From Salinispira sp. (GTDB taxonomy: Bacteria; Spirochaetota; Spirochaetia; DSM-27196; Salinispiraceae), in contig CBDDDG010000021.1 of the NCBI GenBank assembly GCA_965226555.1, positions 256,001 through 320,000 on the forward strand: a DNA stretch of 64,000 nt, read 5' to 3'. Shown piece after piece: positions 11,619 through 63,591 of this stretch (the stretch's first letter is position 1; each line of letters starts with the position of its first letter). The position numbers and the translations under genes are program-made. The notes beneath the pieces are model-generated. The model worked only from the letters and a program-made list of their open reading frames with translations, had not been told where the DNA came from and did not search any database.

Positions 11619-11647
11619 ATTATATATGAAATTTTTGCCTGAGGCAA
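11619..11647 (-). promoter_or_regulatory. Sigma70-like promoter of the moxR operon, probably leaderless; -35 lies inside a 27-bp palindromic unit
   Basis: TTGCCT-17-TATAAT-6 nt-ATG. Confidence 0.55.
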
Positions 11648-11654
11648 AGCTTTG

Positions 11655-11818
11655 TTGTGGATAAACTCTGTGTTGATGCTCAGCATGCTCCCGGGAACAA
11701 TGCTCCGCGCGAGGTCTTTGTTGAAGTAGGAGTATATGAAATCATGGAATATCTGAGGATTTTCAAAAGCATATTTCCAGCTTTGATCGTGCAGCATGCC
11801 TATATATTTTTCGCTCAT
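11655..11818 (-). pseudogene. Rpn N-terminal fragment ending at a palindromic unit
   Basis: HDQSWKYAFENP...NTEFI resembles an Rpn N-terminus; stops at the 11628-11654 hairpin. Confidence 0.6.
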
Positions 11819-11986
11819 ACCATATAAACGGGGTATGCGCGCATGGTGGATGATGTAATGAGAAAATTTTGCAGAAGTTTTGCAGTTTGCGCCTGCGCAA
11901 GTCCTGTACGTTTTACCTCCTCAGGATTTTCCTGCCGGCTGCATGGCGAACCGAATGCCCGGGCGAGCAACGCGGAGCGGCAATAA

Positions 11987-12199
11987 TTAATGCGATCCGT
12001 TTCGCAATGTGCGCATTTCCTCATCGCTCAGCCCGGTAATTCTCTGAACAGCCTCTGTCGACAAGCCTTCCAAAAACATACTGCGGGCCGTTTCTCGAAT
12101 GCCTTCTTCACGACCTGTTCGCAGTCCTGTCTGCAATCCTTCCTGCCGACCCATTTCCGCAATGCGCGCTCTGAATGTTTCCGCATTCATTCTGAACAT
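11987..12199 (-). CDS. Intact RpnS-like small protein (70 aa)
   Basis: AAGGAGGT RBS plus ATG retained downstream of the insertion. Confidence 0.6.
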   Translation of the reverse strand: MFRMNAETFRARIAEMGRQEGLQTGLRTGREEGIRETARSMFLEGLSTEAVQRITGLSDEEMRTLRNGSH

Positions 12200-12239
12200 T
12201 TTTGCTACCTCCTTACCTCTCGGTTCTTTTGTTCTTTCT

Positions 12240-12366
12240 GAAACTTTTGCATTGGAAAATTGTGCAAGCACAATTTTCCAGTAGCAAAAGTTTCAAATTT
12301 GGAATGCTTTCTTTGTGCTTGGCATTCTCCAATTTTATAGAAAGTTTTGCCTCTGGCAAAACTTTG
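12240..12366 (+). mobile_element. 127-bp palindromic MITE-like element inside Rpn
   Basis: Absent from the paralog; flanks TTTCT/CTTCT. Confidence 0.85.
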
Positions 12367-12930
12367 CTTCTAACTGGTTCATTAACGTATCTAAATCTAT
12401 AACAATTCCGAACATCGAATCTACCACGCCGATAAATTCCTTTATCAGCTCCAGCGATTCCTCATTCAGCATTTCTGCTATCGCGTTCTCCACCTTCCGA
12501 ATGTCCCAATCCGTATTCAGCAGATTTTTCGAGTATAGATCAAGGTACATAACAGCCGCAAACATTCTTCCCCGCTGCTGCAACTGCTCCGCAGAATAAT
12601 CGTTCTCACTTATCAGATCGTAGGGAAAGGGGGCAAGATACTGCGGGAATTCCCGCGTGTTCCGCTCTCTGACGTTCCCGGGCACCTTCCATTTTCTCGT
12701 GCCATTATAGAACACAATGGGCAGAAATATCAATTCGCAGTCATCGGGAATTGCTCTGGAGCGATGAATGTTCCGATAGAGCAGGTTTGTGTACTCCGAC
12801 ATGCGGAGGGGCATGTCTTTGTCCATGCGCCTCCGACAAAGCGTTGCAGAAATTGGAGCATTATTGCGGGTTGGAACAGCAGGGAGCGGTAGCCTTGGTC
12901 ATAGGGAACGGGGGCGGGTTTTTCTATGAA

Positions 12931-13716
12931 TTAAAATGTCTGCGGTTCAAAGTCTTCGGCGTTGATAATGGAGGCGCTGGAACCCGTGGCTTTAATGGCA
13001 AAGAGCTTCTTTTTTTGAGCGTATTTATCGGCCGATCCAACAACATTTATGTAGGCAACACCCCCGTAAATAATATCGTTTTGAAAGCGGGGCATGGCTG
13101 TTCGAAATAGTTTCATGCTCTTGAGAAAATGATCCACATCTTCTACCCTGAGAGTGGTTTTGACTTCAATTACCACCGTTTCATTGCCGTTGCAGGCAAT
13201 AAGATCAAACTCGGCAAGCGGTTTTCCCGGAACTTCTATATATTCTCTTCTAACCAAAGTTTTGTCTACGGTAATTCCTCTCCTCTTGAGCAACCTTACC
13301 AAGTCGCCCTCCACGAGGCTCTCTATGAGCTTGCCCCACTGGGAGGTAAAGAGTTCATCGAGCTTTTTTAGCCTGCGGTCGGTTTCCTTCTCTCGACGCC
13401 GAGACTCCAGTCGGGACTCTTCCATTCGGCGGTCGGTTTCCTTCATTCGACGGTCGGTTTCCTTCATTTGGCGGTCGGTTTCCTTCATTTGGCGGTCGGT
13501 TTCCTTCATTTGGCGGTCGGTTTCCTTCATTTGGAGGTCAATTTCCTTCCCTCGACGCTCAGCCTCCTTCTCTCGACGCTGAGACTCCAGTCGGGACTCT
13601 TCCATTCGACGGTCAATTTCCTTCCCTCGACGCTCAGCCTCAATTCGAGACTCCTTTTGGGACTTTGCCGTTTCTGCCATCATGTCTTTAATTTCTTGTA
13701 CGGTTAGTTCTGCCAT
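12931..13716 (-). CDS. Coiled-coil heptad-repeat protein with C-terminal PD-(D/E)XK domain (DUF3782-like)
   Basis: (QMKETDR)n from 21-bp tandem repeats; EFDLIA...VIEVK; RBS AGGAG. Confidence 0.75.
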   Translation of the reverse strand: MAELTVQEIKDMMAETAKSQKESRIEAERRGKEIDRRMEESRLESQRREKEAERRGKEIDLQMKETDRQMKETDRQMKETDRQMKETDRRMKETDRRMEESRLESRRREKETDRRLKKLDELFTSQWGKLIESLVEGDLVRLLKRRGITVDKTLVRREYIEVPGKPLAEFDLIACNGNETVVIEVKTTLRVEDVDHFLKSMKLFRTAMPRFQNDIIYGGVAYINVVGSADKYAQKKKLFAIKATGSSASIINAEDFEPQTF

Positions 13717-13928
13717 TGTCTGTCTCCTCTCATGTATAATAGCCTTTTCCGGTACTGAAATCAACTGGCAGACATTCTGCCGAAAACCCTGCCAAAGCCT
13801 CCGACCAGCCCCCGTCTCAGCAACAGACGCATGGCGAGCCGGATGCCCGGGCGAGCAGCGCAGTAGCCAAAGCCGCCGACCAGCCGGCGCGCTCACTCAT
13901 GTACCGCGCCGGCATCTACAGCATGCAG

Positions 13929-61747: not shown

Positions 61748-61869
61748 TTTTTGATATTGGTCAGGCAATCTCCGTTCATATGGAAAGAAGGTTCTGGATG
61801 TTTCTTCTTTTCTTGATTTTCTCTGTCCCTTCTTCGGGAGGGGCAGAGCATTCTACATGGAGGTGAAAT

Positions 61870-62256
61870 ATGGTACCAGAAATACACGGAATAGAAAAAA
61901 ATGCCGGAGCAGTTCAATTCCGCTCCAGAAACAATTCCCATACATCACCCACCCCGAGCTCATTAAGTAATAAGACAATGAAAATTCGTCAGATTACGGC
62001 GGAAAAAGCTGCTGAAGCCCGCCGTGCGGCGCAGCGAAGGATCAAACAGGAATTAGAACGGGCATCGCGTGAAATACGGCTCCCTGTTAATCATAAACTA
62101 CAATACTCCATCGATTTCAATAGTAAGGATATTATGGTTAAAGTAATTGATGCTACGACGAATAAGGTAATAAAAGAGCTCCCCCCCGAACAGGCCCGTC
62201 GACTTCGTTCGCGCATTCGGGAATTTGCCGGTCTCCTCATTGATAGAACCATCTGA
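61870..62256 (+). CDS. flaG: FlaG family protein
   Basis: VKVIDATTNKVIKELPPE...GLLID. Confidence 0.85.
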   Translation: MVPEIHGIEKNAGAVQFRSRNNSHTSPTPSSLSNKTMKIRQITAEKAAEARRAAQRRIKQELERASREIRLPVNHKLQYSIDFNSKDIMVKVIDATTNKVIKELPPEQARRLRSRIREFAGLLIDRTI

Positions 62257-62405
62257 AATGAGAAACTTTTGCATTTCGCAAAACTCCCTGCAAAATGCGG
62301 GAATGCTCAGTGCATAAAAGCATTCAAAATGAGAAACCTTTGCTGTAGCCTATTGCCATAAATATATTTTTTATGATAGGCTCAGCTTCTGCTAAAAATA
62401 ATTCC

Positions 62406-62479
62406 GGGCTAATAGCTCAGTCGGTTAGAGCGCTTCTCTGATAAGGAAGAGGTCCCTGGTTCGAGTCCAGGTTGGCCCA
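62406..62479 (+). tRNA. tRNA-Ile (GAT)
   Basis: Cloverleaf; anticodon loop CTGATAA; GGTTCGAGTCC T-arm; CCA not encoded. Confidence 0.95.
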
Positions 62480-62585
62480 GTAATTTTGAAAAAACAGGAT
62501 TCAGGAGACAGATAGCACGATCCGCTGGGCGATTCGTAGCTGACAGAGGTTCGATTACTCTGCGCGCTATAAAAAGGAGGCTTTT

Positions 62586-63332
62586 GTGAAAAAGTTTATT
62601 GTTACAAGTTTACTATCGGTGTTGATAGTATTTGTGTTGGTTGCGGGATGTACCCCCCCCCCCGTTCAGGGTATGCCAGGTGAGCCTGGCCCGCAGGGAG
62701 AGCAAGGCATTCCGGGAGATGATGGTCAGCCCGGAGCCGATGGTCAGAAGGGAGATGATGGTCAGCCCGGAGCCGATGGTCAGAAGGGAGATGATGGTCA
62801 GCCCGGAGCCGATGGTCAGAAGGGAGATGATGGTCAGGACGGAGATGATGGCGCTGATGCTGTCGATCCGAATGATGGTATTGACCCTGATCCTGCCGCG
62901 CATGATCTGGAGACGACTACATTTGCGGTTGATACATGGCGCGAAGGTATCCATTGGAAAGCTGGTGTGTATATCGTGTATGTTCAGTTAGATAGAATGC
63001 GCTCTGGTACCATTGCTTCGTCAATGTATATTCAAGGAAAGCAATACGTTGCTGGTGATGTTATTTGGCTTGATCCATTGGGCAAAATTGTCGATCCGCC
63101 AGCGGTAGTTGTGGATTATACTATAAGTGATCCGTTTACCTTGGATGCAGATACCGTCTTTGACGGTATCACGTATAAGGGTGGTACGGAACTTATTGTA
63201 TATTCTGGCACCGGCACTGTCTACTCAGGGACGCTTGCTGAAGAAACGGCTATTGACGGGACAACCTACCCCGCTGGCACAGTCGTAACGCTTACTCCCA
63301 CAGGCGATGTTATTTCAACCGTTGCGCCGTAA
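62586..63332 (+). CDS. Collagen-like (Gly-X-Y) lipoprotein
   Basis: LVAGC lipobox; C11 tract; 36-bp GQPGADGQKGDD repeats. Confidence 0.8.
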   Translation: MKKFIVTSLLSVLIVFVLVAGCTPPPVQGMPGEPGPQGEQGIPGDDGQPGADGQKGDDGQPGADGQKGDDGQPGADGQKGDDGQDGDDGADAVDPNDGIDPDPAAHDLETTTFAVDTWREGIHWKAGVYIVYVQLDRMRSGTIASSMYIQGKQYVAGDVIWLDPLGKIVDPPAVVVDYTISDPFTLDADTVFDGITYKGGTELIVYSGTGTVYSGTLAEETAIDGTTYPAGTVVTLTPTGDVISTVAP

Positions 63333-63346
63333 GCGGCAATCCAATC

Positions 63347-63372
63347 CGTGGGTGGGGTTATCCCTACCCACG
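63347..63372 (+). terminator. Hairpin after the lipoprotein gene
   Basis: CGTGGGTGGGG-TTA-TCCCTACCCACG. Confidence 0.5.
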
Positions 63373-63537
63373 CCATATTTCGGGCTTACTGAATAAACGT
63401 TATTAATGCAAAAGTTTTAGTAAAGTTTTTTCAAAAAAAGCGAAAAAGGTATTTACTACCTGTTAGCAGATGTGCTATGGTGCAAGACTATTCATGAAAT
63501 AGGAGGAGTGGGAGATTTTTTATGATCTTCACGCTGT

Positions 63538-63591
63538 GAAATTTTTGCCGCTGGAAGTTGTGCAAGCACAATTTTCCAATGCACAAGTTTC
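63538..63591. mobile_element. 54-bp palindromic unit in the rRNA leader
   Basis: GCTGT/GCTTT flanks. Confidence 0.65.

Follow-up and report, generated by a model that had tools for sequence, protein, structure and literature searches.

The 64,000-nucleotide stretch analysed here (the window, G000:C21:256001-320000, G000 being the Salinispira sp. assembly under study) carries a family of palindromic repeats in which 11-bp arms, complementary at 9-11 of 11 positions, bound units of several sizes. The largest are gene-less, 97-168 bp long, and resemble miniature transposable elements with inverted repeats (MITEs). The reading proposed below, to which a probability of about 0.7 is attached, is that this MITE family is moved by an insertion sequence (IS) of the IS5 family, and that the accompanying 24-55-bp units are remnants of larger copies that shrank in place. 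All units listed by a first-pass annotation of this DNA were present, with small corrections to their ends (e.g. 12240-12366, and 57141-57195, which is 55 bp). They are given here with strand and left/right 5-bp flanks; coordinates without a contig are window positions.

17671..17795 (+), full-size MITE of 125 bp, made of a 54-bp nested hairpin, a 45-bp spacer hairpin and a 27-bp end hairpin; TGGAG/TGGAG, exact
12240..12366 (+), 127-bp MITE beside an Rpn gene remnant; TTTCT/CTTCT; flanks match the site C1:333249, whose paralogs are empty
54740..54866 (+), 127-bp MITE splitting the transposase gene of the window IS5; ATATC/ATATT; empty in one paralog
26282..26405 (+), 124-bp MITE with a second spacer type, inside an Rpn paralog; target TTATT, flanks TTACT/GTATT, the element-adjacent bases being non-target
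38636..38803 (-), 168-bp variant, a MITE whose spacer holds about 45 bp of a different, GC-rich repeat; TAAAA/TAAAA
23765..23791 (-), solo 27-bp unit with asymmetric ends, one left and one right outer end of the large MITE; TATAC/TATAC
60541..60567 (-), solo 27-bp unit lying between a pair of flagellin genes; TTCGT/TTCGT
11628..11654 (+), 27-bp unit without duplication
30944..30970 (+), 27-bp unit without duplication
42434..42460 (+), 27-bp unit at an Rpn gene start, without duplication
49095..49121 (+), 27-bp unit without duplication
51490..51529 (+), 40-bp unit whose size matches an arm-to-arm deletion; TAATA/TTATA
57141..57195 (+), 55-bp unit with both outer ends of the large MITE, without duplication
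58418..58471 (+), 54-bp unit directly 3' of rplT, right arm decayed; ATAAA/ATAAA
63538..63591 (+), 54-bp unit, flanks differing at one base
17453..17535 (+), partial copy, rearranged
35092..35149 (+), partial copy with one arm duplicated
62262..62343 (+), decayed copy 5' of a tRNA gene
25677..25696 (+), 20-bp hairpin with overlapping arms, without duplication
53808..55293 (-), IS5-family element flanked by TATA, its ends (GGGAAGCTCTGG) unrelated to the arms; it serves the MITE as a target and does not mobilise it

Several earlier observations on these units held. The four 27-bp units said to lack clean flanks (11628, 30944, 42434 and 49095) indeed show no duplication at any of them, and the window IS5 was rightly described as having ends different from those of the repeats. 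The claim that its open reading frame (ORF) is restored by taking out the insert was also borne out, as removal of the 54740 insert together with one 5-mer gave a 361-codon open frame, and a paralog is empty at the same site. An Rfam search of the window returned tRNA only and nothing on the repeats.

The G000 assembly (2.98 Mb, 26 contigs, 93.5% complete) is rich in IS elements, and the IF-3 encoded in the window shares 79-81% identity with its counterpart in Salinispira-like spirochaetes. Its contamination is 6.7%, and the contig pairs C9/C17, C13/C16, C4/C10 and C1/C12 carry near-identical gene runs; these are likely strain haplotypes, so that some of the paralogs discussed here may be alleles. 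The window contains 51 exact arms and the genome 1751, against 1 and 22, respectively, once the sequence is reversed. Pairing of arms yielded 482 raw units, which were de-duplicated to 463 bounded units covering 1.36% of G000; 239 were single-site and 215 passed an isolation filter.

Scanning for the motif and comparing flanks with shuffled controls, as the first-pass annotation had proposed, placed 5-bp flank identity far above chance in the 27-, 54- and ~126-bp classes. Among raw units, the flanks were identical over exactly 5 bp in 18/65 units of 27 bp (shuffled 1.0, maximum 5), 27/97 of 52-60 bp (shuffled 1.6, maximum 9) and 12/76 of 116-135 bp (shuffled 0.5, maximum 4). Identity peaked at 5 bp, with lengths of 2-4 and 6-9 near control except for four six-bp matches in 96 units of 61-100 bp. 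At unique isolated sites, exact duplications were seen in 11/38 units of 27 bp (control 0.7), 4/30 of 28-45 bp, 14/44 of 46-60 bp and 11/25 of 116-135 bp, and in 51 of all 215, against shuffled values of 0.1-0.8 per class. The target reads T-nnn-A: 77 of 102 strand readings start with T, and often a C precedes and a G follows. Where filled and empty paralogous sites could be compared (n=34), element plus 5 bp was the commonest length difference (24/34). The earlier claim of 5-bp duplications even at 27-bp units was thereby upheld, and five 27-mers have empty paralogous sites, two of them clean (TCTTG, TTATA). From the duplications and the empty paralogous sites it therefore follows that every size class is inserted DNA or the remainder of inserted DNA. 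The family pattern was found in 0 of 40 close relatives, and no orthologous empty sites were obtained from them.

The young form of the element is 125-127 bp long and folds into three hairpins. The 54-bp hairpin consists of arm F1, 4-5 bp, an inner arm, a 2-3-bp loop, an inner reverse arm, 4-5 bp and arm R1, and is followed by a 45-bp spacer with a hairpin of its own and then by the 27-bp hairpin (F3, a 5-bp loop and R3). Left-type arms thus lie at offsets 0, 15 and 99 and right-type arms at 28, 43 and 115, forming direct repeats inside strong hairpins; two window copies gave folding z values of -8.7 and -13.7, the former for 17671..17795 at -37.9 kcal/mol. Variants have the 27- and 54-bp modules swapped (98 and 153 bp), the second spacer, or a passenger (168 bp), and the interiors of the hairpins are often inverted from copy to copy. 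The 168-bp variant at 38636..38803 was found again at other, unrelated sites. Its passenger (window 38700-38750) belongs to a GC-rich repeat of the GGACGCATGGGCGAGCAGG type (66 blast pieces) that inserts into MITE spacers and IS genes; further copies lie at G000:C21:353073-353114 and C21:150079-150116, and the composite of 168 bp has in turn reached several sites.

The family behaves as an IS5-family MITE in the features tested: terminal inverted repeats, target duplication and a high copy number without a transposase gene (463 units, mostly below 170 bp). Of the 50-800-bp range used as a size criterion in the accessible part of PMC11602168, the 54-168-bp forms fall inside and the 24-43-bp forms below.

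To find a candidate mobiliser, all G000 ORFs were clustered and the ends of nine IS types were read. The sole type with MITE-like ends was a 1340-bp element outside the window that encodes a 338-aa IS5-family transposase (examples below); such ends were absent from the eight other types examined.

G000:C22:194693-196032 (-), candidate mobiliser
G000:C1:59249-60588 (+), candidate mobiliser

The ends of this element read GAAACCTTTGC / TCAAA(G/A)GTTTC and those of the MITE GAAACTTTTGC / GCAAAA(G/C)TTT(C/G), and one solo right end of the IS is identical to a MITE arm. Ten copies have both ends, six being full-length at 1340 bp (98.6-100% identity), and seven frames are intact. The transposase matches NF033581 at 226 bits (cut-off 140) and contains the domains DUF772 and DDE_Tnp_1; D145, D230 and E280 are invariant across 14 aligned proteins and are taken to be its DDE triad. 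The element carries terminal inverted repeats of the IS5 type (ISPg1/ISNme1 kind) together with a target duplication, which is an exact 5 bp at 7 of the 10 copies. Its (C)T-nnn-A(G) target bias is common to the MITE, T standing first in 13/14 strand readings for the IS, in 45/60 for small units of the MITE and in 32/42 for large ones. At E<=1e-50 the transposase was found in 0 of 98 close relatives. A 377-aa IS5 element that also makes 5-bp duplications was set aside as a weaker candidate, its ends matching the arms at 7-8 of 11 positions and the three duplications read starting with A.

Right ends of the 338-aa IS5 element also occur alone, at eight places (G000:C1:329197, C1:218508, C2:84359, C12:84724, C23:24699, C26:21578, C2:107066 and C10:557052). 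Several lie immediately 5' of a ribosome-binding site and start codon, and such ends are possibly an outward promoter retained at gene starts. At G000:C6:2400-5900 an IS982-like element is nested within the 338-aa IS5, itself within an IS5 of the window type that also holds a 27-mer with an exact duplication.

When 400 other spirochaete genomes were scanned for the pattern, one further rich case emerged, the complete genome G114 (86/87 matches); four other genomes had 1-2 matches. G114 contains 242 exact ends and a single NF033581 (IS5_4) element, both found in 0 of 3 congeners, and its transposase is 34% identical to the 338-aa transposase of G000. A sample of 60 stretches (1.2 of 2.43 Mb, mostly picked around listed matches) contained 127 units, for the most part of a form about 200 bp long in which one end is that of the IS and the opposite one is a 30-bp hairpin built from two ends. 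This form has an exact 5-bp duplication in 60/88 cases (control 1.6) and is apparently driven by the single IS copy. Solo 27-30-mers (n=25) showed 3 exact duplications (control 0.2), and 8 were still joined to MITE interior; the diagnostic base of the far end (see below) stood on one arm in 3/25 solos against 2/88 embedded hairpins. The target bias differs from that of G000, with A first and T last, and the flanks of the G114 IS copy likewise start with A. The G114 loci are given in one line.

G114:C1 (L219 1285-2651; L220-L279), MITE of the second lineage

G114 thus repeats the IS5 link and the collapse, the latter at lower frequency, and finding one design in two distant spirochaetes suggests that the route recurs. 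Because of the matching ends, the duplication length, the target bias and the co-occurrence in two lineages, the 338-aa IS5-family transposase is, from sequence, the likely mover of the MITE family, whereas the first-pass annotation could name no mobiliser. The enzyme would bind the outer arms of the large unit and insert it, staggered by 5 bp. The middle of the inserted MITE would then be lost when two like arms slip or recombine, leaving 24/25, 27, 39/40, 42/43, 54/55, 96-98 or 111 bp with the original duplication unharmed.

The origin of the small units can be read from the fifth base of the arm, which is C in F1 and R1 and G in F3 and R3. A sub-hairpin cut by its own arms is predicted to have symmetric ends, and a large unit minus its middle to have C+G. 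Embedded 27-bp hairpins were symmetric in 29 and C+G in 3 of 38 cases, whereas solo ones were symmetric in 7 and C+G in 16 of 38 (Fisher 5.8e-6). For 54-bp hairpins the embedded copies comprised 30 symmetric and 2 C+G of 37, against 6 and 24 of 44 among solo 46-60-mers (Fisher 1.9e-9; rows with other letters at the diagnostic base were excluded from both tests). All 13 large units with a good duplication have asymmetric ends. Were any two end motifs enough for movement, as had been proposed, solo units with the symmetric arms of the embedded hairpins would be expected; these counts do not support that, the solo units mostly carrying the asymmetric outer ends of the large unit. Given those ends, the 27-mer is probably in most cases a scar of the MITE, and a dead end, rather than a cut-out sub-hairpin.

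Sizes and alleles agree with this picture. If DNA is lost between like arms, 9 of the 39 lengths from 22 to 60 bp are expected (24/25, 27, 39/40, 42/43 and 54/55 bp), and these account for 100 of the 121 solo units in that range. Compared with a sub-hairpin, a deletion product was the better match for 69 units and as good a match for 52; no unit was matched less well. Of 17 sites with more than one filled paralog, five hold differing sizes; at the TGAAC site, 153-, 126- and 54-bp alleles occur together, and the 54-mers include left-half and right-half as well as mixed products. Where the duplication is exact, pristine arms were seen in 11/11 large units, 7/14 54-mers and 5/11 27-mers (p 0.012). 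The loops of solo and embedded 27-hairpins have the same spectrum (AAAAT in 24/38 and 20/38, respectively), and 108 of 125 small units are unique in sequence. No convincing private clone of small units was found; two of seven repeated groups were not derivable by deletion, each being one inversion or base away. Repeated collapse in place is accordingly regarded as the origin of the small units with rather good confidence.

A number of points weigh against this overall reading. The list of predicted sizes was compiled after the size spectrum was known, and the deletion library was 30 times the rival library (4279 vs 134). No site was found with both a full-size and a 27-mer allele, the five size-variable sites reaching 54 bp only, and the 23765 unit and the 54-type remnant at the same point of C21:427664 sit in paralogs just 75% alike. 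Chimeric ends show deletion origin, not the in-place origin of every 27-mer. Single-site 27-mers number 38 against 25 large units; they keep exact duplications at 29% against 44%, and 5/11 are pristine. On the side of the mobiliser, IS and MITE have just 9-11 terminal bases in common and no interior sequence, and the right end of the MITE frequently terminates in G, not C. Finally, simple IS5 insertion does not account for the non-target bases found beside many copies. Contigs of other strains (runs X1, X2, X5 and X3) aligned to G000:C10:10000-29900 (7 units) favour neither side: they mostly break at or short of units, and among the joints listed none skips a unit.

The non-target bases follow a polar pattern. 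At 24 sites with empty paralogs differing by element plus 5 bp, the two element-adjacent bases were non-target in 33/96 cases, the two far bases in 5/96 and the outer flanks in 64/720 (p 3.6e-7), a second comparison yielding a similar pattern, and the replacements converge on C at -2 and on G/T,T on the right side. These sites lie mostly in Rpn paralogs and older subfamilies and are not independent; examples are as follows.

window 26282-26405, partial duplication
C1:332867, partial duplication
C17:9220, partial duplication

At 164 non-exact unique sites without an empty allele, a weak excess was present at the middle base alone (p 0.04), and the polar change was not clearly visible in the 11 informative units of G114. 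Extension of the hairpin as the cause was rejected, as no excess complementarity was found at 140 sites and 5 offsets. Carry-over of donor bases and exchange between copies are candidate explanations.

The rival that survives best is that the collapsed 27- and 54-bp forms arose by a few deletions and then spread themselves through the IS5 transposase, by loop-free end pairing or as an extruded hairpin. In its favour, 27 bp is the commonest single size, 11 of the 38 27-mers carry exact duplications, identical pristine 27-mers occur at up to four unrelated sites, and the pristine 27-mer at C6:2470 lies in an IS copy with flanks 96.7% alike to an empty paralog. A precedent for excision, not for reinsertion, is offered by the internal eliminated sequences (IESs) of Paramecium, in which a domesticated DDE enzyme excises 26-28-bp segments according to the accessible text of PMC3464196; by analogy, such segments, still cut by a DDE enzyme at that length, would keep the small-unit mobility reading open. 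The repeated 27-mers are nevertheless exactly what the commonest large unit would yield by deletion, decay is further advanced in small units than in large ones, and G114 has few solos, of which few show duplications (3/25 vs 60/88), so that this explanation is considered unlikely. The first-pass annotation had named origin by internal deletion as the outcome that would count against independent mobility; the solo ends do fit deletion, while later movement of a collapsed 27-mer retains the small chance given here. An equally doubtful variant is that an IS5-type DDE transposase moves 27-30-bp end-only hairpins without a DNA loop, partly carrying two donor-flank bases per end.

Much less probable is movement of the hairpins by an HUH enzyme (RAYT or IS200/IS605 TnpA), an IS110 recombinase or an Rpn nuclease, in the manner of REPIN or PATE elements and partly without target duplication. 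Strong single-strand hairpins, the location of 154/463 units in or near Rpn loci, and the many older copies that add element plus 5 bp without a true duplication would suit it. Yet PF01797 (Y1 HUH) and PF02371 (IS110) had 0 matches in the 93.5% complete assembly and the arms equal IS5-type ends, on which grounds HUH and IS110 mobilisers were rejected; fresh copies, moreover, have true and diverse 5-bp duplications and IS5-type ends. An Rpn-associated mobile unit was likewise rejected, a 5-bp match being found at 1/51 bracketed Rpn loci and only 4/51 unique exact-duplication units lying near Rpn loci, which span 8.7% of the genome. The Rpn excess arose because already filled paralogs were copied with their inserts. 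In all, about 174 Rpn/YhgA loci occur in G000 (8.7% with flanks), many of them broken, in near-identical groups or in tandem arrays; those of the window lie at 4533-5681, 12335-12826, 26486-27220 and 42441-43553.

Similar hairpins were also found in other DNA: 63 stretches (65 matches) of JGI metagenomes, with an exact 5-bp duplication in 0 of the 63, and 3 stretches of viral contigs. At 14 of the 15 metagenome loci checked, a 25-bp hairpin, GAAACTTTTGC-N3-GCAAAAGTTTC, in most cases with ATCAAAG after it, stands 1-4 bp 3' of a tRNA gene, without duplication; the tRNA genes are diverse. A 26-bp hairpin, GAGAGTTTTGC-N4-GCAAAACTCTG, is contained in a larger repeat of G163, G264 and G312, three genomes from a single genus (L177-L179, L181, L182 and L184), and no IS5_4 match was found in G163.

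L098, L099, L100, L105-L107, L114, L115, L118, L121, L122, L124, L128, L153, tRNA-linked hairpin on metagenome contigs

That the small palindromes are operators or terminators rather than mobile DNA is refuted as an origin, for although the units are mostly intergenic (193/215 by crude gene calls) and the 25-bp hairpin stands just 3' of tRNA genes in unrelated metagenomes without duplication, 5-bp duplications are about 16 times control, 27-mers have empty paralogous sites, units between convergent genes number 24, fewer than the 31 expected, and the pattern is absent from 40 relatives.

The interpretation as an IS5-moved MITE that collapses in place can be set beside known systems. The accessible text of PMC4596501 describes IS5-family MITEs of Porphyromonas gingivalis (BrickBuilt, MITEPgRS/MITE464) that pair with ISPg1, ISPg4 and ISPg9, and ends of similar type in ISNme1 of Neisseria. 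Like the G000 family, these MITEs are gene-less, have ends of about 12 bp (near-)equal to a resident IS5 element and contain no transposase remnant, and the ISPg1 ends (GAGACCATTGCA/TTCAAAGGTCTC) parallel the G000 ends (GAAACCTTTGCA/TTCAAAGGTTTC). Unlike them, the G000 MITE has an interior of further end copies (six arms), about 460 copies and a regular 5-bp duplication, and shrinks to 24-55-bp forms that retain the duplication. The closest named transposase in a plasmid search was that of ISAba23 (IS5 family, Acinetobacter plasmids), with 45.5% identity over 94%; the first 13 bases of its left end are the same as those of the 338-aa IS5 element, and it is an autonomous relative only.

Correia elements of Neisseria (CREE/NEMIS) are similarly abundant MITEs, with size classes of 100-155 bp and about 2% of the genome, but they have 26-bp inverted repeats and a TA duplication, and the accessible part of the source describes no duplicated 27-bp collapsed class (PMC3898611). 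Repetitive extragenic palindromic (REP)/REPIN and PATE elements share the small hairpins, the hundreds of intergenic copies and the modular clusters, REPs being 21-65 bp long in the portion of PMC3184786 available. In contrast to these HUH-associated elements, the G000 arms are AT-rich and equal IS5 ends, the duplication is a staggered 5 bp, and no Y1 transposase was found in G000. Paramecium IESs are, like the small units, transposon-derived DNA that shortens with age, accumulating at 26-28 bp (PMC3464196, PMC3408717, accessible parts); they differ in being eukaryotic, bounded by TA, excised in development and shortened gradually, not in jumps between repeated arms. A census of MITEs in 183,000 genomes gives, in its accessible text, minimum sizes of 36-53 bp and 49 bp for the smallest bacterial MITE (PMC11602168). 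New in the present family are the interior of repeated ends, the stepwise collapse below 49 bp and the recurrence in a second lineage. As regards the novelty of the ends raised in the first-pass annotation, these are of a described IS5-family type (ISPg1/ISNme1 in the accessible text of PMC4596501; ISAba23), and it is the family itself that was not found described: the open-access literature yielded no account of it or of the collapse of an IS5 MITE to sub-30-bp units.

Other features of the window include a defence-like cluster at 43994-50200 (two GmrSD-domain genes, a RecG-C/HATPase_c_4 gene and an HSDR_N gene) and a Schlafen AlbA_2/Fic-like gene at 28603-30147. Surface-protein paralogs with fn3 and DUF285 domains are expanded (2424-4256, 13929-15302, 15526-17427, 23911-25473 and 35805-37532), and their upstream regions are homogenised, frequently with these repeats.

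MITE detectors with a floor of about 50 bp overlook the 27-30-bp hairpins, and a duplication around a tiny unit is no proof of movement at that size. The polar change of the duplication bases may reveal an overlooked step, either in how IS5 ends are processed or in an exchange from copy to copy, and the family offers a test system for the smallest DNA that a DDE transposase can move. If movement at 27-30 bp did occur, the 5-bp footprint would be only partly a duplication, and the end hairpin of two distant spirochaetes would be the mobile core. If, instead, the MITE is moved by the IS5 transposase and its copies collapse in place, the family would provide a life cycle for tiny bacterial palindromes, leading from IS5 ends to a MITE and by stepwise collapse to 27-30-bp hairpins, scars that resemble REPs, operators or terminators and yet retain the target duplication.

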